Part shown: positions 12,565 to 46,064 of the stretch, piece by piece
How the letters are laid out: the number at the start of each line of letters is the position of its first letter
Position numbering within the stretch: the first letter of the stretch is position 1
Source: an uncultured Bacilli bacterium
Lineage (GTDB): Bacteria; Bacillota_I; Bacilli_A; RF39; UBA660
Length of the DNA stretch: 48,480 nt
Assembly (NCBI GenBank): GCA_947628685.1
Contig: CANRAT010000001.1
Coordinates: forward strand, 1-48,480
Reading direction: 5' to 3'
The notes under the pieces: model-generated
What the model was told of the DNA's origin: nothing
Seen by the model: the letters and a program-made list of their open reading frames with translations, nothing else
Databases searched by the model: none
Program-made: the position numbers and the translations under genes

Positions 12565-12852
12565 TTATTCATTTAATATCCAAGCCTCATAACCACCTGA
12601 AACATTTACAACACTATATCCTAAATTTGATAGTATTTGACAAAGTTTTCTACTTTGAATACCTTTTTGACAATATATATAATATTTATCATATTTATTT
12701 AAGTATTTATCAGGTTTTATAAGTAATTGTTCCATTGGAATATTTACTGCATTCATAATATGTCTGTTATTATATTTTTCTACACTTCTTATATCAATTA
12801 AATTAACATAATTTAATTTTTTTAAATCAGTTATAGAAATACTTTCAAACAT
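12565..12852 (-). CDS. Single-domain rhodanese-like protein
   Basis: 95 aa. Active-site loop YCQKGIQS and C-terminal GGYEAW, typical of small rhodanese-domain proteins. Confidence 0.8.
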   Translation of the reverse strand: MFESISITDLKKLNYVNLIDIRSVEKYNNRHIMNAVNIPMEQLLIKPDKYLNKYDKYYIYCQKGIQSRKLCQILSNLGYSVVNVSGGYEAWILNE

Positions 12853-33426: not shown

Positions 33427-34605
33427 CTATTCGAAAATTATTTCATTTTCTAATTTAGTAGTGTTATTATCACCAGTTAAATTAAAATTATTTTGTACAT
33501 TTTCTTGTTTAATAACATCTTGTTGTTCTTGATCTTCTTGTGCATTATATTCCTCTTTAATAAATCCTGTTGGAAGCGTCACTCCTTGAGTTTCCAAATA
33601 TTCTATCAAATATTTAGATGGATTTTTTCTATAAACCTTACCGTCTGGTGTCTTTTTATAAAGAGTATTATATTTTGCATCATTATCTTCTGTGACGTAG
33701 AATTCAGTAACTTCGGCAATCTCTCTTACAAAATTTTTAGTTACTTTATCTTGATAACCTCTTATATAGACTCCAAGTTGAATATATCTATAAATTGATT
33801 TTAAAAATTGCTCTATATCCTGATTAGTCTCAAGAAGACTATACATACGGTTTGGTATAGATGCTGCTTTATCAGCATGTATTGTAGACAAGATATAATG
33901 TCCTGATGAAATAGAGTTTCTAACTGCCATTACAGCTTCCGCGCTACGCACCTCGGACAAAAGTATCCATTTTGGATTCTGTCTCATACAAGTAACCAAA
34001 ACATCAGAATAACTGGCTATGTTATTTGTTTTCATAGCGACTATATCTCTATTTGGATATATCCTATCCAAGTGAAGTTCAAGTGTATCCTCAATTGTTA
34101 TCAATTTTTCGTTTTCATATGTATTTGCAGCCAAGAACTTAACGAACTCTGTTTTACCTGAGCCTGTCTCACCACAAACAATTATATTGCAATGTCCATG
34201 AACGCAAGTTATCAAAAAATCTAATATATCTTCAGTTATATATTTTTCTTTTAATATCTTATTTCTTTCCAAACGAATTTTAGCAGGTGTTTTACGAATA
34301 ACACATGCAATTCCGTTTCTAGCTATAGAATCGTGTACGAAATTCATACGCAATTCTGCACTTTCGCTATCTAGAAATGGATGGGCAGCATTAAAACTTT
34401 TCCCCATAACATTCGAACATTGAAAAGCCAATTTTTCCATAAAAGCATTATTAATTGCAGGATTTTCTATTCTAAAAATACCTTTTGATAATGTTTTTAA
34501 CCAAACTTGTCCATTATTACTATATGAAATATCGGTAATATCATCGTTATCTAAATATTCTTTTAGTGGACCAAAGTCCATTCCTTCGAATATATTATCA
34601 CTCAT
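33427..34605 (-). CDS. tadA: TadA/CpaF-family secretion ATPase (VirB11 superfamily)
   Basis: Walker A GETGSGKTEF, Asp box ITIEDTLEL, Walker B WILLSEVRS and His box LSTIHA. 392 aa. Confidence 0.88.
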   Translation of the reverse strand: MSDNIFEGMDFGPLKEYLDNDDITDISYSNNGQVWLKTLSKGIFRIENPAINNAFMEKLAFQCSNVMGKSFNAAHPFLDSESAELRMNFVHDSIARNGIACVIRKTPAKIRLERNKILKEKYITEDILDFLITCVHGHCNIIVCGETGSGKTEFVKFLAANTYENEKLITIEDTLELHLDRIYPNRDIVAMKTNNIASYSDVLVTCMRQNPKWILLSEVRSAEAVMAVRNSISSGHYILSTIHADKAASIPNRMYSLLETNQDIEQFLKSIYRYIQLGVYIRGYQDKVTKNFVREIAEVTEFYVTEDNDAKYNTLYKKTPDGKVYRKNPSKYLIEYLETQGVTLPTGFIKEEYNAQEDQEQQDVIKQENVQNNFNLTGDNNTTKLENEIIFE

Positions 34606-34606
34606 A

Positions 34607-35416
34607 TTACTCCACAGGTTGTTCTACATTTTCATCAGTAATAACGTCTTCCTCGATTGTAATAGATTGTGCATCTATATAATCTCTTAAAGTAGCACTT
34701 GTAACAATTACATAATTCTCTGTTGGCACTGTAGATCCTCTTGGAGCTAAAACAAGTTCAAGATTTAAATATTCTGCTTTTTTAAGTAACATATACATAT
34801 CTTGGTTTACTGCAAATCCTATTTTAGAAGGAGTTCCTATATTTAAAGAATCTTCAAATACATTCTTACCATTTCCATCATGTACAACTAATACTTTAAC
34901 ATTTTTCATAAGTTTACCAAATATTATTGTACCATTTTCATCTGTCGCTTTCATATATATATCTATATAAGAATTTGGTAAAACTGAATTACCTAATGTA
35001 CTAGTTATATTAACGCTCATATAAAATCCAAGTTCTCCTGATGCTCTATCTAGTTGTTCAATCCAGTTTCCTGGTATATTAGCGCCCTCTGCAAGCCATT
35101 CACTATAAAACATACTTCCTTCTGGAATTGTTACATTGTAATTTGTGTATTTATCAATTATCTGATTTGAATATCTAATCGCATTTTCACTTACCATGCT
35201 ACTTGCGACTTGTTGATAGACAATATCGTCTGCAGTTATTCTAGTTTGTGGATTTATTTTTCTTGAAGCAACCGGCATACTTACTGGATTAGTTTTTTGT
35301 TTTATACTTCCACTATATCCAAAATAAAGTACGACTAGTATAACAATTACAAGTAATATTGTAACAACATTTTTATTAGTAATAAATCTTTTAAACCCTA
35401 TCAATATATTATTCAT
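34607..35416 (-). CDS. cpaB: CpaB/RcpC-like Flp pilus assembly protein (SAF domain)
   Basis: N-terminal TM helix, then VSMPVASRKINPQTRITADDIVYQQV, typical of the SAF-domain start of CpaB. It lies immediately upstream of tadA. Confidence 0.65.
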   Translation of the reverse strand: MNNILIGFKRFITNKNVVTILLVIVILVVLYFGYSGSIKQKTNPVSMPVASRKINPQTRITADDIVYQQVASSMVSENAIRYSNQIIDKYTNYNVTIPEGSMFYSEWLAEGANIPGNWIEQLDRASGELGFYMSVNITSTLGNSVLPNSYIDIYMKATDENGTIIFGKLMKNVKVLVVHDGNGKNVFEDSLNIGTPSKIGFAVNQDMYMLLKKAEYLNLELVLAPRGSTVPTENYVIVTSATLRDYIDAQSITIEEDVITDENVEQPVE

Positions 35417-35431
35417 CTTTTTATTCTCCTC

Positions 35432-35848
35432 TCAATATGTAGTTTCTATTATCTCATCGATATTATTTACAATATCAAATTCAAAAGTATCATTTTCCTT
35501 ATTAGGTAACAAGAAATTTTGAGATTTTACACTAGATACTCTCATGCTTACCTTAGGTGGAACCTCATTTACATCATATATTTCAATTACATATGTATTA
35601 GATAAATCGGCATTTTCAGAAAATCTTCTAATAAAGTTTTCAACAAACTTTTCTTCCTCAATCCTTATTGTACTATCTTTTCTATATGCTGCTAAATCTA
35701 AAGAATCCTCCATGGCAGCTTCAACAGTTTCTCTTAATAAATTAAAATTGTGTTGATCCGTTCTTGTCACAGTTGCAAAGAACCAAATAATTCCAATGGC
35801 AAATAGTCCAAGTGCCATTATCGCATATCCCCACATTGACTCTTTCAA
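35432..35848 (-). CDS. Minor pilin-like protein sharing the MKES-x-G leader
   Basis: The ORF is open to a GTG at 35863. However, a TTG at 35848 sits 4 nt after AGGTGA and yields MKESMWG-YAIMALGLFAIGII, matching the leaders of three other cluster proteins. Confidence 0.55.
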   Translation of the reverse strand: MKESMWGYAIMALGLFAIGIIWFFATVTRTDQHNFNLLRETVEAAMEDSLDLAAYRKDSTIRIEEEKFVENFIRRFSENADLSNTYVIEIYDVNEVPPKVSMRVSSVKSQNFLLPNKENDTFEFDIVNNIDEIIETTY

Positions 35849-35996
35849 ATTATCACCTACCACCTTCTATTTTATAAATTTATTTTATCACATATTAATA
35901 TTTTAAACAATAGTTTTTTTATTTTTTTCACTAAATTTATATGAATAGTCACATTTAACTGATATTGTATGTTTATAATTTACACTTTTTTTACAA

Positions 35997-36659
35997 TCAT
36001 AATTTAAAACTATTTCGTTTATTGCTTACATACATAATTAATCCACATATAGCAATAATAGCTATTAAAAATATATAATAATATTTAGTATAAATTTTTG
36101 TTAATAAATCAATAAATCCAGTTTCATATTCTATTTCATTTTTAGTCTCATCTTTTTTATTTAAGCTACTTTTATATTGTAAAACTAAAGTTTTAAATCT
36201 ATCATATGTATAACTGTTATCAATCCACTTTTGGCATAGACCATAACCTCTTATATCATCACAAATAGGGTCGTTAAAATATTGATTATATACAGGAAAT
36301 TTATAATATTTTGAACCTATTGATAAACCATTGCAATCACTTAAATTAGAATAAAACTTATATGTTCCCGAATTAATACTATAATTTCTTATTACAAGTT
36401 CCCCATTATTTGTATCACTAAAATAATAATAAGTATTTAATCCAGAATCATATAAATATATATCATCAGTTAAATTATTAATAGTAACATCAAAATAAAT
36501 TTCTCCATTTGTTTCATGATAATCATAGGAAATATTTATATTGCTTACAATAGATTTAAGTCTAGATATTTGTGAATATTCACATCCACCATAGGTTAGT
36601 GCTTTTGCATAAGATAACCCTAGAAAGAACATAATTACTACTATAATTATTTTTTTCAT
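35997..36659 (-). CDS. Secreted protein with a C-terminal TM anchor, unknown function
   Basis: Signal peptide MKKIIIVVIMFFLGLSYAKA, a Tyr/Asn-rich ectodomain of about 170 aa with 4 Cys, and the C-terminal helix YYYIFLIAIIAICGLIMYV. The preferred start is the ATG at 36659 (AGGTGG upstream). Confidence 0.6.
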   Translation of the reverse strand: MKKIIIVVIMFFLGLSYAKALTYGGCEYSQISRLKSIVSNINISYDYHETNGEIYFDVTINNLTDDIYLYDSGLNTYYYFSDTNNGELVIRNYSINSGTYKFYSNLSDCNGLSIGSKYYKFPVYNQYFNDPICDDIRGYGLCQKWIDNSYTYDRFKTLVLQYKSSLNKKDETKNEIEYETGFIDLLTKIYTKYYYIFLIAIIAICGLIMYVSNKRNSFKL

Positions 36660-36666
36660 ATTCCAC

Positions 36667-38241
36667 CTACTTGAGTATATATTCATAATGAGAATTTCTT
36701 AAATTGAAAATAATTTTAATTTCATCGGCACTCTTAATATCAGAAATAACTCCTATATATGCAGTATTTGCTTCACTTGACTTTTTACTTTTAATTTGTT
36801 CAAAATTACTTTCTTGATTATACCACTTATCCCCTATTTTATATGATATATATCCAAAACTACTTAAAAAATCGTAAAATGTTTTTGAATCTATATAACT
36901 ATTGTTTGAATATTCTACATTTAATTTTAATATATATTTATCAAATGTAGTATTTATAGTTGGTTTTAAATATTCTATAGAATTTATGCAATCATTATCT
37001 GACATACAATAGTTATAAGAAATTAAAAACTTATCACTTACCTCAAAACTATTAATTTTAAACTTAATATCTCCTAAAACTTCTTCAAATGACATTAATT
37101 CACCCACATTAACTGATATAGAATTATTAGAAATTTCTAGTTGTGATGGTTTTAAATTTATATCTATTTTATAATCAAGTCCATTATATATTAATTTCAT
37201 TTTACTATTTGTAAATTTATTAGGGACTTCAAAAACTAATAAATAATTTTGCAATTCTTTATCTAATATGTCTTCTTTGTACGTTTTTCCCAAATCTATT
37301 AGACTGTTTTCATAGTTAGATACAGGTTTGAATTTTATCCCACCAATATTTAAAGTAAAATTATTTAAATAAAGAAATTTATTTTCTATCGAAGAATTTA
37401 AAGACAAATTAACAGCTACCAAAGAAGTATCATTAGTTGAAAGATTAAGGCCTTCATAATTTTCTTTAACTACTTTGGTTGAATTAACTTGTATACCGTA
37501 ATTGCTAACATAGTAAAGCTGTCTTTCAACTTTTTTATCACTATTTCTTTTTAAGACAACAATGGCACTAGTAAGCGCTATCAAAGCGCAAAATGAAAGT
37601 ATACATACATTTATAATAAATCTATTTTCTACATAAGCATATTTTAAATTTCTAAATTTTTCTTTTCTTTTTCTTTTTAATTCGTCAAAATCAACATTTA
37701 CATTTACTTCTATTTCTTCTCTATCACTTTCAGATATTTCAATATTTGAAAGATCAGAATCAAAATCAAATTTTTTAAAATTAATACTCATTCCACGTGC
37801 GATAAAAACAGTTATCATCACGCTTTGTATAATAACACTTATAAGTACTAAATCGTGTATCAATTTAACAGAACTAACAGATAGAATTTCTTCTTCCATA
37901 AGTTTTAAAAAATTTGCTGTATATACATTTATTATTAATACAACTATAAATGAAAAAATACATATAAAATAAAAAGTAACAGGCTTATGTTTCTTAAACA
38001 TTATACCTAGTATTATCATAACTATAACTAATACAACTATTGGTACTACATAAAATAAACTATTAATATATGTACTTTTTATTTCAGTTCCAACCACACT
38101 AGTAGTATTGTGTAGATAATTATTTAAAAAATTTAGTATTTTATTATTTGTAATTATTGAATAAAAAATTATTAGTGAAATAAGCAAATGGAGAGGCTTA
38201 AACACTTTTATAAAAAACGCATAAGGTTTTTTTAATATCAT
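36667..38241 (-). CDS. Polytopic membrane protein with a large extracellular beta-rich C-terminal domain, unknown function
   Basis: About 5 TM helices with a charged cytoplasmic loop (EISESDREEIEVN...KRKRKEK), then a C-terminal ectodomain of about 290 aa. AAGGAGAGG RBS. Confidence 0.6.
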   Translation of the reverse strand: MILKKPYAFFIKVFKPLHLLISLIIFYSIITNNKILNFLNNYLHNTTSVVGTEIKSTYINSLFYVVPIVVLVIVMIILGIMFKKHKPVTFYFICIFSFIVVLIINVYTANFLKLMEEEILSVSSVKLIHDLVLISVIIQSVMITVFIARGMSINFKKFDFDSDLSNIEISESDREEIEVNVNVDFDELKRKRKEKFRNLKYAYVENRFIINVCILSFCALIALTSAIVVLKRNSDKKVERQLYYVSNYGIQVNSTKVVKENYEGLNLSTNDTSLVAVNLSLNSSIENKFLYLNNFTLNIGGIKFKPVSNYENSLIDLGKTYKEDILDKELQNYLLVFEVPNKFTNSKMKLIYNGLDYKIDINLKPSQLEISNNSISVNVGELMSFEEVLGDIKFKINSFEVSDKFLISYNYCMSDNDCINSIEYLKPTINTTFDKYILKLNVEYSNNSYIDSKTFYDFLSSFGYISYKIGDKWYNQESNFEQIKSKKSSEANTAYIGVISDIKSADEIKIIFNLRNSHYEYILK

Positions 38242-38260: not shown

Positions 38261-40747
38261 TTAACGTTTACTACTATTATTTACTGTTACTACATTTCTT
38301 GAAATTAAAGTAGTTAAATAATTGCTTGTACAAATCTTTCCTTCACTATCACATGTCATATTAAAGTCATCGTATGTTGTTCCTGAATTATAATTCCTAA
38401 TTTCTTGAATTGTTTGTGGTGTGAGAGTTATTACATATTTTGGCTCTACTTTTGCATTTGTTTTAGGTATTATCCCATACCTATTTGGTGTATTTTGCAT
38501 TATTGTCTCTGAATATAAATCTTTACCCGTTGATATATATTCATTCATTAATGTTAAATCTGATGCATCAATATTTCCATCTCTATTGATATCGTATTTG
38601 TCTTCTAAAGTATCTATTCTTTCCATTACTATATTGTAATCGCTTGCATCAAATTTACCATCACCATTAATGTCTAGACTATCCATTGTCCAGTTTGTTC
38701 CTGCTTTTCTGGTATTACCACTCTTTCCTGGAAATGAATCTTCTACATCTACACTCCTATATTTTAAATTTAATTCATTATTTAGTATCTCATTAAATAT
38801 ATCATATGTACAAGATGTATTATCGTTTGCTATTGTATTACCTATTGGATCACTTATCCTAAATGGAATTGTTTTTCTAATTGTTGTTGTCTCTGAATCT
38901 AATTTGGTAACATATCCATATCCTAAAAATCTGCAATTGAAACATTGCGTAAATGATGTTTCTCCTGTTCCAATTTTAGAATATACTGAAGGTAGGTTAT
39001 ATAATTTCTTATATGTATATGTAAAAACTGAATATCCACTTCCAGAATATGAATTTGATGTAGTATCTAATAATTCATTTGTTAATTCATTATCATTTAA
39101 TGAAACACTTCCTACATACTTTGAATAATCTTTATTATCTGTAAAATTGTTTGGTGTTCCAAATACGTAACACGTTCTTGTTACCGTTCCTTCTCCTATT
39201 TTAGGTTCTTTTAAGTTTAATAACATTTGACCTGATTTTATCTTTCCAAAATAATGATTATTTGTTATACCTAATACATTTGAAAAATTAAATGTATGTC
39301 CACAAAATGCAGTATAATTATTATTTAAAGTAATTTCTTCTTCAAATCCTGATAAATTATTTTCATTAAAATTACTAATACTAATATCTGCATACATACA
39401 ACCATATTTTTTATTGTAATTTGGTGTCGCATTATTTGTACAAGTTGGATTTGAGAAATCTAAAAGCCCTTTCTTTTTATATTTGTTATATAAAGTTACT
39501 AATTGATTTCTTGTAGGATTAGAACCTAATGATTCTAACTCGCTTTGACAACTTTTTTTATTTGTTACAGTTATACTCTTATCCGAATTGATTAATACTC
39601 TCATAGTTCTTCCACTCATACTTATACAGCCAACACAACTTCCTGCTTCATATCCACTAGGTAATGTTTCTGTTAAAGCATAAGTAATTGTACTTGCTGG
39701 TATACCTGTTATCTCACAAACACCATTAATATTTGTAGTACAAGTCATAGGAGAAATGCCGTTACCACTTAATGTGAATTTAACGCCACTAATAGGACTA
39801 TTTGTTGTACTATCTTTTTTTGTTATTTTTAAAGTATATTTTGTAGGAGTTGGATTATCTCCTGGATCTCCTGGATCGGGTGGATAATCAGGAAAAATAT
39901 CATCAATTATATATTTAAAATATCCGCATCCAGAGTAATCACTTGTTAATCTACCAGTTTGACCACTTCCAGAATTTTGAATAGGGCAAGAACTTTTGCC
40001 TGCTATTTGTAAGGCAGTTGACATTGAACCGTATATATACTGAAAATCTAATCCAGGTGTGCTAGTTGTTGTTGTTTTGCACAAATTGCCTTCAGGACCA
40101 GAATATGCAACATTAAGTCCCATTAAAGCAGTTGATGTTCCAAAATATTTCGCACCATCACAAAATACAAGCGTAACTGGCTCTATTATTATCAAATCAC
40201 CTGATTTAATATTATTAAAGTCATAACCTATAACGCTCAAAACGCCTCTTTGCTTATCTGCTAAATTATAATAAGAATTATCTCTTAAATAATTGTCTAA
40301 ATATGTACCACTACTAGCCGTATCTCTAGTCCAACTATTTCCAAGATTATTTCCATATAAGCAACCTTTAAATTTAACTGTCTGAGCGCTTGTACAACTT
40401 GCAGTAGAGCCTACATTTTTAATTTTGTCATAATCATATCCTGTTGTAGTACAAACCTTAACATCACTTAATTCTCCATAACAATCACCCTTTGAATTTG
40501 CTAGTGCGAAATACCCTTCATTAATTGTTGTTCCATTCCTAATAACTCTTACGCGAATATCATTTAAATAAGGTGATGGCCATTTTGTTGAACTTCCTGA
40601 AGCATCTCCACCAGTTTCTCCACCTGGTGACCCACCTGGAGTATTCTCATCATAAATATCAAACGCTATAGCTGTACTTGTACATATTAAAATGAGTGCA
40701 AACACAATGGATATAATTATTATACATTTTCCTATATTTTTTTTCAT
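38261..40747 (-). CDS. Secreted adhesin-like protein A (Cna-B/SpaA-like domain plus dockerin-like EF-hand pair)
   Basis: Signal peptide. Cna-B/SpaA-like segment KYTLKITKKDSTTNSPISGVKFTL...YALTETLPSGYEA. Dockerin-like segment DINGDGKFDASDYNIVM...DINRDGNIDASDLTLMNEYI. No LPXTG. AGGAG RBS. Confidence 0.75.
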   Translation of the reverse strand: MKKNIGKCIIIISIVFALILICTSTAIAFDIYDENTPGGSPGGETGGDASGSSTKWPSPYLNDIRVRVIRNGTTINEGYFALANSKGDCYGELSDVKVCTTTGYDYDKIKNVGSTASCTSAQTVKFKGCLYGNNLGNSWTRDTASSGTYLDNYLRDNSYYNLADKQRGVLSVIGYDFNNIKSGDLIIIEPVTLVFCDGAKYFGTSTALMGLNVAYSGPEGNLCKTTTTSTPGLDFQYIYGSMSTALQIAGKSSCPIQNSGSGQTGRLTSDYSGCGYFKYIIDDIFPDYPPDPGDPGDNPTPTKYTLKITKKDSTTNSPISGVKFTLSGNGISPMTCTTNINGVCEITGIPASTITYALTETLPSGYEAGSCVGCISMSGRTMRVLINSDKSITVTNKKSCQSELESLGSNPTRNQLVTLYNKYKKKGLLDFSNPTCTNNATPNYNKKYGCMYADISISNFNENNLSGFEEEITLNNNYTAFCGHTFNFSNVLGITNNHYFGKIKSGQMLLNLKEPKIGEGTVTRTCYVFGTPNNFTDNKDYSKYVGSVSLNDNELTNELLDTTSNSYSGSGYSVFTYTYKKLYNLPSVYSKIGTGETSFTQCFNCRFLGYGYVTKLDSETTTIRKTIPFRISDPIGNTIANDNTSCTYDIFNEILNNELNLKYRSVDVEDSFPGKSGNTRKAGTNWTMDSLDINGDGKFDASDYNIVMERIDTLEDKYDINRDGNIDASDLTLMNEYISTGKDLYSETIMQNTPNRYGIIPKTNAKVEPKYVITLTPQTIQEIRNYNSGTTYDDFNMTCDSEGKICTSNYLTTLISRNVVTVNNSSKR
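38268..39885. repeat. Copy 1 of a 1,618-bp direct repeat (3' two-thirds of adhesin A)
   Basis: Matches 40864-42481 at a constant offset of 2,596 bp. The boundaries were read base by base and spot-checked at three internal positions. The ORF-track translations are identical on both strands. Confidence 0.85.
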
Positions 40748-40853
40748 ATGCGTTCTCCTATCCTATTTTGATTATACAACATTTTTTTTAAAATTAAAAG
40801 TTTTTTTGTAAGTTATATTGAAAATAGTAAACAAAAAGTAAACGAAACTATTC

Positions 40854-43346
40854 TTAGCTTCGCTTACTACTATTATTTACTGTTACTACATTTCTTGAAA
40901 TTAAAGTAGTTAAATAATTGCTTGTACAAATCTTTCCTTCACTATCACATGTCATATTAAAGTCATCGTATGTTGTTCCTGAATTATAATTCCTAATTTC
41001 TTGAATTGTTTGTGGTGTGAGAGTTATTACATATTTTGGCTCTACTTTTGCATTTGTTTTAGGTATTATCCCATACCTATTTGGTGTATTTTGCATTATT
41101 GTCTCTGAATATAAATCTTTACCCGTTGATATATATTCATTCATTAATGTTAAATCTGATGCATCAATATTTCCATCTCTATTGATATCGTATTTGTCTT
41201 CTAAAGTATCTATTCTTTCCATTACTATATTGTAATCGCTTGCATCAAATTTACCATCACCATTAATGTCTAGACTATCCATTGTCCAGTTTGTTCCTGC
41301 TTTTCTGGTATTACCACTCTTTCCTGGAAATGAATCTTCTACATCTACACTCCTATATTTTAAATTTAATTCATTATTTAGTATCTCATTAAATATATCA
41401 TATGTACAAGATGTATTATCGTTTGCTATTGTATTACCTATTGGATCACTTATCCTAAATGGAATTGTTTTTCTAATTGTTGTTGTCTCTGAATCTAATT
41501 TGGTAACATATCCATATCCTAAAAATCTGCAATTGAAACATTGCGTAAATGATGTTTCTCCTGTTCCAATTTTAGAATATACTGAAGGTAGGTTATATAA
41601 TTTCTTATATGTATATGTAAAAACTGAATATCCACTTCCAGAATATGAATTTGATGTAGTATCTAATAATTCATTTGTTAATTCATTATCATTTAATGAA
41701 ACACTTCCTACATACTTTGAATAATCTTTATTATCTGTAAAATTGTTTGGTGTTCCAAATACGTAACACGTTCTTGTTACCGTTCCTTCTCCTATTTTAG
41801 GTTCTTTTAAGTTTAATAACATTTGACCTGATTTTATCTTTCCAAAATAATGATTATTTGTTATACCTAATACATTTGAAAAATTAAATGTATGTCCACA
41901 AAATGCAGTATAATTATTATTTAAAGTAATTTCTTCTTCAAATCCTGATAAATTATTTTCATTAAAATTACTAATACTAATATCTGCATACATACAACCA
42001 TATTTTTTATTGTAATTTGGTGTCGCATTATTTGTACAAGTTGGATTTGAGAAATCTAAAAGCCCTTTCTTTTTATATTTGTTATATAAAGTTACTAATT
42101 GATTTCTTGTAGGATTAGAACCTAATGATTCTAACTCGCTTTGACAACTTTTTTTATTTGTTACAGTTATACTCTTATCCGAATTGATTAATACTCTCAT
42201 AGTTCTTCCACTCATACTTATACAGCCAACACAACTTCCTGCTTCATATCCACTAGGTAATGTTTCTGTTAAAGCATAAGTAATTGTACTTGCTGGTATA
42301 CCTGTTATCTCACAAACACCATTAATATTTGTAGTACAAGTCATAGGAGAAATGCCGTTACCACTTAATGTGAATTTAACGCCACTAATAGGACTATTTG
42401 TTGTACTATCTTTTTTTGTTATTTTTAAAGTATATTTTGTAGGAGTTGGATTATCTCCTGGATCTCCTGGATCGGGTGGATTAAAAATATCATCAATGTT
42501 ATATTGAAAATATCCGCATCCAGAATACTCACTATGTAATCTACCAGTTTGACCACCTCCTTTATTTGTAACAGGGCAAGAGGGTTTGCCTGCCGTTTGC
42601 AAAGCAGTTGACATTATGCTATATACGTTCATAAAATCTGCATATGGTGCGTTAGTTGTTGTAGTATTATTACACTGGTGACCATCCACACCAGAATAAT
42701 TGATATTAGATCCCATTAAAGCAGTCGATGTACCAAAATATCGTACATTATCACAAACAACAAGTGTAGCAGGCTCTATTATTACTTTGTCTCCTTTTTG
42801 TGCATTATTAGCATTATAACCCATGCGATCTAAAACGGTTTCTTTTAAATTTTTATATGAATTATTTTTTAAATAATCGTTTAGATAATTACCATTACCG
42901 GAATCTCGTGTCCAACTATTGCCTAAATTTTCACTATCTAAGGATCCACTAAAATTAAATTGACTTTGTACGTTAGTAGTACAACTTGCATCTTTTGCAG
43001 CATCTGATATTGAATTGTAATTATAACCAGATGTCGTACACACTTTAACTTCTGTTATGTATCCCACATCTTTTAAGTTGTTGTCATTTGGATTTTTTAA
43101 TAAAAAGTATGATTCTTTTAAAACAGAATTACCTCTAAATATTCTTACACGAATAGAATTTAAATAAGGTGATGGCCATCTTGTTGGTTTGCCTGTTCCA
43201 TCTCCATTTCCACCCTCAATAAAAGGACTACCTGGATTATTTTCATCATAAATATTATATGCCAAAACGCTTTTTATACAAATTGTTATTAGTATAAGTA
43301 AAGATATATAAATTATACTTTTTCCTACATGTTTATTAATATTCAT
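40854..43346 (-). CDS. Secreted adhesin-like protein B (paralog of A with a divergent N-terminal ~290 aa)
   Basis: Signal peptide. From PPDPGDPGDNPTPTKY to the C-terminus the sequence is identical to A, except for one extra terminal Ser. The N-terminal region is clearly homologous but diverged. Confidence 0.75.
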   Translation of the reverse strand: MNINKHVGKSIIYISLLILITICIKSVLAYNIYDENNPGSPFIEGGNGDGTGKPTRWPSPYLNSIRVRIFRGNSVLKESYFLLKNPNDNNLKDVGYITEVKVCTTSGYNYNSISDAAKDASCTTNVQSQFNFSGSLDSENLGNSWTRDSGNGNYLNDYLKNNSYKNLKETVLDRMGYNANNAQKGDKVIIEPATLVVCDNVRYFGTSTALMGSNINYSGVDGHQCNNTTTTNAPYADFMNVYSIMSTALQTAGKPSCPVTNKGGGQTGRLHSEYSGCGYFQYNIDDIFNPPDPGDPGDNPTPTKYTLKITKKDSTTNSPISGVKFTLSGNGISPMTCTTNINGVCEITGIPASTITYALTETLPSGYEAGSCVGCISMSGRTMRVLINSDKSITVTNKKSCQSELESLGSNPTRNQLVTLYNKYKKKGLLDFSNPTCTNNATPNYNKKYGCMYADISISNFNENNLSGFEEEITLNNNYTAFCGHTFNFSNVLGITNNHYFGKIKSGQMLLNLKEPKIGEGTVTRTCYVFGTPNNFTDNKDYSKYVGSVSLNDNELTNELLDTTSNSYSGSGYSVFTYTYKKLYNLPSVYSKIGTGETSFTQCFNCRFLGYGYVTKLDSETTTIRKTIPFRISDPIGNTIANDNTSCTYDIFNEILNNELNLKYRSVDVEDSFPGKSGNTRKAGTNWTMDSLDINGDGKFDASDYNIVMERIDTLEDKYDINRDGNIDASDLTLMNEYISTGKDLYSETIMQNTPNRYGIIPKTNAKVEPKYVITLTPQTIQEIRNYNSGTTYDDFNMTCDSEGKICTSNYLTTLISRNVVTVNNSSKRS
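40864..42481. repeat. Copy 2 of the 1,618-bp direct repeat (3' two-thirds of adhesin B)
   Basis: See copy 1. About 70 bp of 5' UTR/promoter sequence (…AACTTTTAATTTTAAAAAAA(A)TGTTGTATAATCAAAATAGGATAGGAG…) is also conserved upstream of both genes. Confidence 0.85.
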
Positions 43347-43505
43347 ATTCGCTCTCCTATCCTATTTTGATTATACAACATTTTTTTAAAATTAAAAGTT
43401 TTTTATACTTTTCTTCATACATATCCTCCTACTATATTACATAACTTTTTTTAAAACTTAAATTTCTCTATAGATTATATTAAGTTAAAGTAGACAAAAC
43501 TAATT

Positions 43506-46064
43506 TTAATTTCGTTTATCACTGTTATTTATTGAAACAACACCTTTACTCATTAATAAACTTAAATAATTACTAATGCACACATTTCCTTCGTTTGAAC
43601 AATTTAAATTATAATCGTCATATGAAGTATATGAATTATAATTTTTTATTTCTTTCATTCTTTCTGGAGTTAATGTAATAACATATTTTGGTGATACTTT
43701 CTGATTTGTACTAGGAATAACTCCGTAACTATTTGGTGTAGTCTCTAGTGCATATCTAGCATATACATTATCATAACTACAACTTTCTTTTAAATCTCCA
43801 TTTGAATTTGATAATGCCCAGTTATAAAAAGTTAAATCTTCAGAATTAATTAAACCGTCTTTATTTAAATCATATTTTGAATCAAATTCATTGCTTTCAA
43901 TTGCCGCAGTTAATGCGTCATATGTTATGTCGCTTAAATCTTTACTACACCAATTATTTCCAACTTTTCTTATATTTCCACTTTTACCTGGAAATGCCGT
44001 CTCATAACCATCACTACTCAAACCCCTATATTTTAATTCTAAGTTATTACCTTCAACAATTTCATCTTCAATTTTATAATTACACGTTCCACTATATGCT
44101 GTACTATTTGTCTTTCTAGTGTATGAATTAATGAAGTTAAATTTAAAATTAAATGAAGTTTTATTATTGTATAATTTAGTTATTAATCCATAACCTAAAA
44201 ATTTACAATTTGGACAATTTTCAGTATATACTGTCCCTGCACCATTTTCTGCATATACACGTGGAAGATAATAGTAACCATATAAAGTGCCTTTATAATA
44301 ATTAGATTTATCTACTTGGCTAACAAACATTGTATTCATTCCACCAGGTACATAATAAGACAAGTTTACTATATCGCCATCAAAATTAATTTCTACATTT
44401 TTTATGTAGTCAGAGTAATCACCTGATGCGAATGATGATACATTCGTATCGCCATATAAATAGCACTCTTTTACTACTTTAATATTAAATACATGCCCAT
44501 TTGGCGTTTGAAATATTAATTGTCCAGATTTTGTCTCCCAATCAGTTCCAACATAATTATCGAGGCTGAATGTACTCGCACAATAAGCTGTAAGTCCTAA
44601 AACATCAGAAGTGTCAGTGTAGCAGGATAAATCATTCTCATTAAATCCATTAACTACAAACGAACCTGAAAAGCAACCTGATGTTTTTGAATAATTGCTT
44701 GAGCAGTTTTTAACTGTACAAGATGGATTATTAAAATTCAACAAATTGTTATATTTACTATCATATTTTTTATATAGATCTATCAAATCTTTAGGCTCAT
44801 ATCCATTGGTTTTCAATATTTCCAATTCGTCAGGACAACCCAATAATTTATTTTCTATAGTAACAACTTTATTATATGAATCTATTTTAATATCATGGCA
44901 TGTAGCATCAGCAATATAACCTTTTGGTGCTTTTGTCTCAACTAAAGCATAATTGTCTCCATAAGTTAAGTTATTAAATGTAACTTGTCCTAAATTAGTT
45001 TCTCCTGATACTATCGCTGAGGCATTAGAAATATTATTACAACTACCTTTATATAATTTAAAACTTGCTGAAGATGAAATAAGTTTTTTTGTACTCTTAT
45101 CAACTTTTTTTACAACTAAACTTGTAGTCGTTTTTTTTGTTAAAGTTATTGTTAAACTATTACTTTGTTGTGTGACATTTTTATTTTCTGTATAATTTAT
45201 CGTTAGTGTCTGATAAGCAGAAGTACAATCATAATTAGCTGCAATAGGGACATCAATACTTTGTGAAAGTGATACTGTTACCTTAGTATCTCCTTCTTTT
45301 ACTTTTGATTTAGGTATTTTATATGAAAAAGATGTAGATGTCTTATTACTCATTTGATAATCTGAGCTTGATATTCCGGATATATTGATTGTGTAATTAG
45401 AATTATATGCATTCTCAACTACACCAGATATTGTATAATAATCGCCACTACTACTTTGTCTTAAAGACTTTAAGTTTATTTTATTGTGTACTTTATCATA
45501 AGCTTCTTTAGCTCTTGATTGTGCTACGCTACCGCACTTCTTATTAGTACAATTTTTATCGTCAAAAACAACAGAAGTAGATATACCATCTTTTTGACAG
45601 CTTGGATTATTAGAGTTATTATTATACTTGTATTTGCATAAAAATGCATTAATCGATAATTCTTCTTTAATGTAATCTTCATTCGCTTTTTCTAAAGAAT
45701 TATCTATTTTAAAATAATCTATTATTGCAGCAACTCCTGCTTTTATTTCATCTGACCAATAATTAGAATTGCTAGTATTAGTTATCATAGGACAATCTAT
45801 TCCTTTTGCTGCAGGTGATTTTTTGGAATATGCAGTACAAAAAAGATTATAATTCTTAAATCCATCAGTTGCAGTATAAATATTTTTTTTAAGTGAAGTT
45901 CCCAAGTCTGAGTGTGCTTTATTATTAGTTATTTTATCATATGTAATCTTACCACCAACTTGTTGAATTTGATATAATTTCTCAGGTAAACTAGCAAACA
46001 CGCTTTCTACTTTAAATAATGAAAAAATACATATTACTAATAAAAATTTATACATTCTTTTCAA
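43506..46064 (-). CDS. Secreted adhesin-like protein C (distant paralog of A/B)
   Basis: Signal peptide. Cna-B-like segment TSLVVKKVDKSTKKLIS...YALVETKAPKGYIAD. It shares a Cys-patterned middle region and a C-terminal block with A/B (YDLNKDGLINSEDLTFYN; PKYVITLTPE..KEIKNYNS; NYLS.L.S.GVV.INNS.KR). TTG start 7 nt after GGAGGA. Confidence 0.75.
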   Translation of the reverse strand: MKRMYKFLLVICIFSLFKVESVFASLPEKLYQIQQVGGKITYDKITNNKAHSDLGTSLKKNIYTATDGFKNYNLFCTAYSKKSPAAKGIDCPMITNTSNSNYWSDEIKAGVAAIIDYFKIDNSLEKANEDYIKEELSINAFLCKYKYNNNSNNPSCQKDGISTSVVFDDKNCTNKKCGSVAQSRAKEAYDKVHNKINLKSLRQSSSGDYYTISGVVENAYNSNYTINISGISSSDYQMSNKTSTSFSYKIPKSKVKEGDTKVTVSLSQSIDVPIAANYDCTSAYQTLTINYTENKNVTQQSNSLTITLTKKTTTSLVVKKVDKSTKKLISSSASFKLYKGSCNNISNASAIVSGETNLGQVTFNNLTYGDNYALVETKAPKGYIADATCHDIKIDSYNKVVTIENKLLGCPDELEILKTNGYEPKDLIDLYKKYDSKYNNLLNFNNPSCTVKNCSSNYSKTSGCFSGSFVVNGFNENDLSCYTDTSDVLGLTAYCASTFSLDNYVGTDWETKSGQLIFQTPNGHVFNIKVVKECYLYGDTNVSSFASGDYSDYIKNVEINFDGDIVNLSYYVPGGMNTMFVSQVDKSNYYKGTLYGYYYLPRVYAENGAGTVYTENCPNCKFLGYGLITKLYNNKTSFNFKFNFINSYTRKTNSTAYSGTCNYKIEDEIVEGNNLELKYRGLSSDGYETAFPGKSGNIRKVGNNWCSKDLSDITYDALTAAIESNEFDSKYDLNKDGLINSEDLTFYNWALSNSNGDLKESCSYDNVYARYALETTPNSYGVIPSTNQKVSPKYVITLTPERMKEIKNYNSYTSYDDYNLNCSNEGNVCISNYLSLLMSKGVVSINNSDKRN

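Follow-up and report, generated by a model that had tools for sequence, protein, structure and literature searches.

Introduction

Gene conversion limited to one segment of surface-protein paralogs is already well known. In Haemophilus influenzae, HMW1 and HMW2 are two large adhesin paralogs that combine long identical secretion and anchoring stretches with a divergent binding region of different specificities; they are two-partner-secretion proteins, are encoded at separate loci of a Gram-negative bacterium, and carry neither a CnaB nor a dockerin module. In the Helicobacter pylori outer-membrane adhesin paralogs babA, babB, and babC, the terminal segments are nearly identical, whereas the ligand-binding segment is divergent; intragenomic conversion keeps these genes alike, and chimeric genes occur (PMC4552749). 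Concerted evolution of prokaryotic paralogs, in which likeness within a genome exceeds likeness to orthologs, has recurred in several lineages, and the surveyed cases are mostly genes for core pathways and complexes that are homogenized over their full length (Wang & Chen 2018, PMC6053082). Here, we describe two tandem genes, A and B, that are identical over their 3′ part and strongly diverged over their 5′ part, in an uncharacterized protein family and lineage. They lie at positions 38,261 to 43,346 of a 48,480-nucleotide (nt) stretch of DNA (the window), which is the entire contig C1 (CANRAT010000001.1) of a 1.29-Mb metagenome-assembled genome (MAG; GCA_947628685.1; 94 contigs, 6.4% contamination) of an uncultured Bacilli bacterium.

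The locus resembles bab, and likewise hom and sab of H. pylori, in that its paralogs appear to be kept alike by intragenomic gene conversion around a divergent segment. However, the bab genes occupy dispersed loci, conversion among them switches expression, and they undergo phase variation through CT repeats, whereas A and B are tandem, each has its own promoter and ribosome-binding site (RBS), only their 3′ part is homogenized, and phase-variation repeats were not observed; moreover, neither the organism nor the protein fold is related. Compared with the surveyed cases of concerted evolution, what is homogenized here is one module of a fast-evolving surface protein, and the tract ends at a domain junction. 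Antigenic variation of the silent-cassette type (pilE/pilS or vlsE) does not describe the locus, because A, B, and a third paralog, C, are all full-length genes with a signal peptide and because A and B each have a conserved −10/RBS leader.

Genes A and B share an exact 3′ block and have diverged 5′ heads

The features on which the comparison rests are as follows.

38261..40747, minus strand: gene A, 828 amino acids (aa) (open reading frame [ORF] list, Pfam, PDB profile search, AlphaFold2 [AF2], Foldseek)
40854..43346, minus strand: gene B, 830 aa, tandem paralog of gene A (ORF list, alignment)
43506..46064, minus strand: gene C, 852 aa, TTG start, older paralog (ORF list, alignment)
38268..39885, minus strand: exact repeat copy 1, the tail of gene A (repeat search, base comparison)
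40864..42481, minus strand: exact repeat copy 2, the tail of gene B (repeat search, base comparison)
40748..40853, minus strand: leader of gene A, with the −10-like TGTTGTATAAT and an AGGAGA RBS
43347..43505, minus strand: leader of gene B, with the same conserved promoter/RBS block

The two copies form a direct repeat of 1,618 bp with zero mismatches at an offset of 2,596 bp, as established by base-by-base comparison, with which the repeat search concurs. This repeat accounts for the 3′ two-thirds of both genes; in gene A, it extends from the linker between head and stalk, whose first residue is codon 289, to codon 826, three codons short of the stop. Just beyond its ends, identity at the fixed offset drops to 26 to 46%, and the flanking head DNA is about 62 to 68% identical at the nucleotide level when aligned with indels. 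Identity between A and B jumps from ~65% to 100% inside one 50-codon window, and the longest identical run is 1,617 nt, compared to a maximum of 123 nt when the mismatch positions were permuted (0/2000). An earlier reading of the sequence (the original prediction) had proposed that the two blocks are exactly identical, that they form the 3′ end of both genes, and that the N-terminal heads are homologous but heavily substituted, with indels; all of this was borne out, the genes being on the minus strand and the heads 55.9% identical in amino acid sequence. The base-by-base comparison also answers the pairwise alignment that it had suggested as a check, as the block contains no mismatch. Its description of a conserved upstream leader also held up: a 71-nt block (40735-40805 versus 43334-43404) is 86% identical and has an exact core of 35 nt, which holds both TGTTGTATAAT and the AGGAGA RBS.

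Rates of synonymous (dS) and nonsynonymous (dN) divergence, estimated by the Nei-Gojobori method, differ sharply between the two parts of the genes. The heads of A and B have a dS of 0.75, a dN of 0.34, and a dN/dS of 0.46, whereas the tails have a dS of 0.006 and a dN of 0. The nearest relative found, P0004, lies on a Logan contig with a single A/B-type gene at the same site. Against it, the tail has a dS of 1.11, a dN of 0.28, and 61% aa identity, and the heads have a dN of 0.46 and 43 to 44% aa identity. Since the tail dS to P0004 is 1.11, synonymous sites in the tail are unconstrained. A uniform clock predicts about 70% aa identity between the A and B tails, whereas 100% was observed. The common ancestor of the tails is therefore far younger than that of the heads, which requires recombination. 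Tails that are 100% identical to each other and 61% identical to the nearest relative, an unbroken run far longer than in permuted data, and the head/tail contrast in dS are the features by which concerted evolution is recognized.

The original prediction had offered two histories, gene conversion and very recent duplication. Duplication of the whole gene in the very recent past is refuted, as synonymous sites in the heads are near saturation. Gene conversion is supported by the dS contrast, by a recurrent 3′-anchored mosaic in at least five other species, and by the clustering of tails by genome (see below). GC-biased conversion was considered as well and rejected, because the GC content of the tail is 28.1%, compared to 31 to 33% in the heads.

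Homogenized tails recur in other species of the genus

We compared 26 other species of the genus (working labels G0xx; G000 is the genome of this window). The family is present in 24 of them, mostly as tandem arrays. Tandem pairs in G014, G011, G020, G017, and G016 show a 3′-anchored mosaic, and all six pairs, counting that of G000, gave 0/2000 in permutations. In G014, the heads are 58 to 77% identical at the nucleotide level (dS 0.84), and 1,533 identical nt (510 codons; tail dS 0.003) follow from residue 296, which is the first strand of the CnaB domain. The G014 tail is only 51% identical to the G000 tail in amino acid sequence, yet it is the closest tail; thus, the event in G014 was an independent one. 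In G000 as in G014, the 5′ end of the tract falls at the head-stalk linker, and this linker is a low-confidence region in the AF2 model.

Tracts in the other species are shorter or more broken. The G011 pair has identical fragments of 395, 688, and 369 nt with patches of 79 to 96% identity between them. Between genes 2 and 3 of G020, identity starts at 87%, reaches 100% across most of the 3′ half, and falls slightly, to 94%, at the extreme end; this stretch includes 422 identical nt. Because mismatch-bearing patches are resolved in G011 and G020, these tracts are not the product of assembly collapse. In G017 and G016, identity is limited to the last 150 and 144 nt, respectively, and the tandem pair of G005 has no identical tract. 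The variation of tract age and length among species indicates a recurring process. Consistent with this, a tree of the last 440 aa (IQ-TREE) places tandem paralogs as sisters in each of 7 genomes, with 96 to 100% bootstrap support in six of them and identical rows in G014.

The surroundings of the G014 pair differ from those of A and B. Two small ORFs (100 and 118 aa) lie between its paralogs, and a UvrD-type helicase gene, not scpA, lies upstream, so arrays with homogenized tails also occur outside the Tad/type IV secretion system (T4SS) site described below. The heads of the G014 proteins have no similarity to those of G000. Upstream of the G014 pair (contig C46, L032, 672-1744) are diverged direct repeats with roughly 160- to 500-nt spacing and 63 to 70% identity.

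The tail also contains an antisense ORF of 152 aa (a 162-codon open frame) at 38670-39128 and again at 41266-41724, both on the plus strand, which is unusual for DNA of 27% GC; G014 has a 158-codon antisense frame at the matching location of its tail. A functional antisense gene as the cause of tail conservation was rejected because the frame is closed in P0004, and on the sequence evidence this ORF is probably not a gene.

Proposed gene conversion and competing explanations

The reading that we favor, with a probability of about 0.68, is that recurrent intragenomic gene conversion homogenizes the tail (the CnaB/SpaA stalk, the β domain, the dockerin, and the C-terminal domain), while the heads escape. 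On this account, A and B would be old tandem paralogs that encode a secreted multidomain surface protein and stand at the head of a chromosomal Tad-pilus/type IV secretion island. Their 3′ 1.6 kb would have been overwritten recently through nonreciprocal homologous recombination within the genome, presumably dependent on RecA, which this genome encodes. The 3′ end of the tract lies where homology runs out, at the stop codon: gene A ends in ...KR*, and gene B ends in ...KRS* within a terminator-like hairpin. At the 5′ end, head DNA of roughly 65% identity may block heteroduplex extension or strand exchange, converted heads may be selected against, or both. The outcome would be one common docking/stalk module bearing two distinct distal heads.

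Several points weigh against this reading, or limit what it can claim. The head and tail trees agree on (A,B),P0004; thus, the case rests on the contrast in rate and dS, not on topological conflict. Within G000, one conversion event and many are indistinguishable. Finally, every assembly of this species is a SPAdes graph built from short reads at 3 to 4.5x coverage, and exact identity is partly a matter of construction, because the repeat is one graph edge that is traversed twice. The ENA contigs that cover the locus, besides the window, are listed here (524aa is the gene directly downstream of A).

L046: ERZ27249530, 4.5x, C-B-A-524aa in a single contig
L049: ERZ27249097, 3.6x, begins 55 nt (= k) inside the tail end, followed by leader A, A, and downstream sequence
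L050: ERZ27249309, NODE_6455, 3.5x, equivalent to window 40479-37511
L057: ERZ27249309, 3.0x, gene C and the B head to residue 255, reached through the gene C strain variant P0025

Across about 7 kb of unique sequence, assemblies of the same lineage show 0 differences. Their discordances lie only inside the repeat, at 1 site between the window and L046 and at 4 sites between L049 and L050. The window and L046 differ at just two positions, 39797 and 42393, which are one repeat position in both copies. The zero divergence claimed by the original prediction is therefore accurate for the window assembly, which contains no mismatch, but insecure beyond it. These discordances are most simply explained by a small number of differences between the two tails that the graph collapsed and reported at random, with a true identity of about 99.7 to 99.9%; strain-level concerted evolution is the alternative. 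Under either account, the heads are much older than the tails. The presence of at least two tandem tail copies is also real, because in L046, L049, L050, and the window, a unique segment made up of the B-type stop (KRS*), hairpin, leader A, and head A has tail sequence on either side.

One of these contigs has an unexpected order. L050 starts inside an A-type head (window 40479) and continues through tail, a B-type stop, leader A, a full gene A, and downstream sequence, and both of its copies carry the same 18 SNPs (single-nucleotide polymorphisms). Taken at face value, its upstream gene would have a chimeric head from codon ~90. This chimeric head was rejected as shown, because L057, from the same sample, has gene C followed by a normal B head up to residue 255. 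L050 represents either over-traversal of an assembly loop or a real C-B-A-A amplification, and it is plausible, as the original prediction proposed, that the repeat serves as a substrate for copy number change.

Among the competing explanations, the one that survives best, although we regard it as unlikely, is allele capture, or head replacement. Here, a recent tandem duplication or unequal exchange between strains would account for the identical tails as a young duplicate, and the head of B (or A) would be a foreign piece imported from a conspecific by homologous recombination. Strain variation lends this some support. Between the two strain lineages sampled, head A (window 39886-40853) differs at 14/968 nt (dS 0.038), whereas head B with its leader (window 42582-43505) differs at 0/924 nt; the tail differs by about 0.3%, gene C by 0.2 to 0.3%, and the downstream gene by 0.5%. 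These head-specific differences suggest that heads have also been exchanged, or have swept, independently of their surroundings. L050 may represent an A-A arrangement, and heads do behave as replaceable modules, given that G014 heads are unlike those of G000 although the tails match. However, the donor would have needed a head with 35% nucleotide divergence on a near-identical tail, while tails diverge between species nearly as fast as heads. The graded, patchy 3′ tracts in G011, G020, G017, and G016 fit repeated internal conversion better, and the leader, which at just 86% identity has diverged as the heads have, is what an old duplication unit would show.

We consider it very improbable that the pair is an assembly artifact, in which two head haplotypes or loci were joined via a collapsed repeat or a loop was miscounted. 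Such an error would be in keeping with the fragmentation and contamination of the MAG and with the low coverage of the other assemblies. It would also fit the start of L049 one k-mer length inside the repeat end, the end of L048, a contig of the G014 species, at the repeat boundary, the differing traversal in L050, and the single repeat position written twice between the window and L046. Yet in four assemblies, tail sequence borders both ends of the unique segment from the B stop to head A, a single contig (L046) covers C-B-A-524aa, no extra in or out edges are known, and the same architecture is found with resolved mismatches in G011 and G020. In practical terms, neither the copy number nor the exact sequence of such genes can be trusted in short-read MAGs.

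A very recent whole-gene duplication, after which positive selection would have driven the heads apart rapidly, can be dismissed: heads do outpace tails against P0004 (dN of 0.46 versus 0.28), and head A has its closest relative in head B and vice versa, but the head dS of 0.75 against a tail dS of about 0, a head dN/dS below 1, and leaders that are also 14% different refute it, because selection at the protein level cannot create synonymous divergence.

Domain architecture of the family proteins

The layout of gene A was defined with an AF2 model built on a 13-sequence alignment, which had a predicted local distance difference test (pLDDT) score of 71 overall (85 to 90 in the tail and 50 to 75 in the head); a model from the single sequence scored 33 and was unusable. 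The protein begins with a Sec-type signal peptide, followed by the variable head (from ~30 to 288), a proline-rich disordered linker (289-300), a CnaB/SpaA domain (303-398), helices, a β-rich middle domain (444-663), a dockerin (688-752), and a small conserved α/β C-terminal domain (771-822). Gene C shares the architecture of A and B but has another head; between its tail and theirs, amino acid identity is about 37 to 40%, and no conversion tract is present.

Two of these domains are recognizable by sequence. The SpaA/CnaB domain matches Pfam PF17802 at 35.3 bits (cutoff, 23.1) over residues ~305-370. It also matches 8bdw in the PDB sequence profile search (E value of 8e-9), as well as 3kpt and 3rkp, and Foldseek aligns it to 8bdw with a target template modeling (TM) score of 0.69. 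The dockerin matches Pfam Dockerin_1 at 37.4 bits (cutoff, 22.9) in two stretches and, in the PDB sequence profile search, 2yik, 2jnk, 5lxv, and 2vn5. In gene A, two canonical Ca-binding loops of 12 residues are legible (DINGDGKFDASD and DINRDGNIDASD), and a helix follows each of them. In the PDB profile search and a Foldseek search of the whole model, significant matches were only to CnaB/SpaA-type and dockerin structures. Pfam searches of the isolated heads, middle domain, and C-terminal domain gave zero matches even at an E value of ≤10, and an NCBIfam scan of the protein gave zero matches.

Gram-positive CnaB/SpaA pilins and MSCRAMMs (microbial surface components recognizing adhesive matrix molecules), such as 8bdw, 3kpt, and 5f44, share with A and B one CnaB/prealbumin-like stalk domain. 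Membership of A and B in these LPXTG-anchored groups fails, because a sorting signal and a local sortase are both missing. The C terminus, which reads ...LISRNVVTVNNSSKR, contains neither LPXTG nor a hydrophobic segment. A Pfam scan of window ORFs turned up no sortase, and four sortase genes lie on other contigs of the genome. A and B further differ from LPXTG pilins in having a single stalk domain and in their head, middle, and C-terminal domains, which are without a relative in Pfam or the PDB sequence search. The original prediction had called these genes adhesins. The only recognizable domains are the CnaB/SpaA domain and the dockerin, and the LPXTG motif is missing; an adhesive role for the heads is therefore a reasonable inference rather than an observation.

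Dockerin systems (the noncellulosomal Clostridium perfringens glycosidase, 2jnk/2ozn; cellulosomal type I, 2vn5 and 1ohz) share with A and B the two Ca loops with their helices, and this genome also encodes a cohesin protein. However, the dockerin of A and B is internal and is followed by a conserved domain of ~85 aa rather than being C-terminal, and the candidate cohesin gene is on another contig beside its own dockerin-bearing protein.

The ends of the two genes differ in one further respect. A terminator-like hairpin with a T-run (40837..40868, minus strand) overlaps the stop codon of gene B and also takes in the extra Ser codon of B. Gene A has no such hairpin, and the 524-aa ORF begins 19 nt after it. 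Gene B may therefore be transcribed separately, and gene A may be cotranscribed with the genes of the downstream machine.

Genomic context and candidate anchors

The family genes open a chromosomal island of about 12.9-46.5 kb that lies between a rhodanese-like gene (12565-12852) and scpAB. Its Tad-type genes encode a CpaF-like ATPase, a CpaB/FlgA-like protein, and DUF5411; its T4SS genes encode VirD4, VirB4, TrbL/VirB6, a PrgI-like protein, an M23 hydrolase, and VirB2-like pilins. Two genes of this island adjoin the family genes.

36667..38241, minus strand: 524-aa protein, directly downstream of A, no Pfam match
35997..36686, minus strand: 229-aa protein, overlaps the 524-aa ORF

Synteny of both with family genes extends to at least eight related genomes or contigs, and the 524-aa protein is a candidate machine or anchor component. 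The conserved primary site, found in eight genomes or contigs, reads scpA, one to three family genes, the 524-aa gene, the 229-aa gene, DUF5411, CpaB-like, and CpaF. Along this operon (33427-38241 versus L033-L045), amino acid conservation is 91 to 95% for CpaF, 67 to 73% for the CpaB-like protein, 57 to 69% for DUF5411, 49 to 58% for the 229-aa protein, 45 to 57% for the 524-aa protein, and 25 to 60% for the family genes. The neighbors of the family genes evolve almost as fast as the family genes themselves.

A second candidate anchor is encoded on contig C8 (L058:559-1866, minus strand). This 435-aa protein has a signal peptide, a cohesin domain (30 to 33 bits, over the Pfam cutoff), a cadherin-like domain, and a C-terminal transmembrane helix. 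The adjoining gene (L058:1876-3264, minus strand) encodes a 462-aa protein in which a cadherin-like domain is combined with a dockerin at the C terminus. The 435-aa protein is kept in 22 of the 26 other species of the genus and has no match in G014. This membrane cohesin protein is a candidate anchor for the dockerins of A, B, and C. The tail may thus dock all paralogs onto a common anchor, either the cohesin protein or the 524-aa and 229-aa proteins; such docking would favor uniformity of the tail while the heads diversify.

The recovery of relatives depended on the search. An exhaustive hidden Markov model search found 693 cluster representatives at an E value of <1e-30, a count that includes multi-SpaA-repeat proteins matched on the stalk domain only, and many are full-length proteins of 700 to 1,000 aa. 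A word-indexed homolog search found few relatives. A search for related loci with the single protein returned zero loci, and one with an alignment query returned 6, all in SPAdes assemblies.

Discussion

This locus provides a natural example of module-limited concerted evolution in an uncultured bacterium of the rabbit gut. What distinguishes it is that independent tracts in different species stop at the same domain junction. That junction marks off the uniform part of an undescribed surface protein (stalk, dockerin, and C-terminal domain) from its diversifying head. It also offers an entry to the function of an unannotated family that is widespread in metagenomes and is tied to the Tad/T4SS island of small-genome gut Bacilli.

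As a tentative possibility, the family could supply a contact-dependent Tad/T4SS machine with an exchangeable set of targeting proteins, in gut Bacilli with reduced genomes that depend on a host or partner, with heads that recognize different target surfaces and a tail that plugs into a common anchor. If so, conversion limited by the junction would keep each head compatible with a fast-evolving anchor, and the family would be a bacterial analogue of modular tail-fiber/receptor-binding-protein systems.

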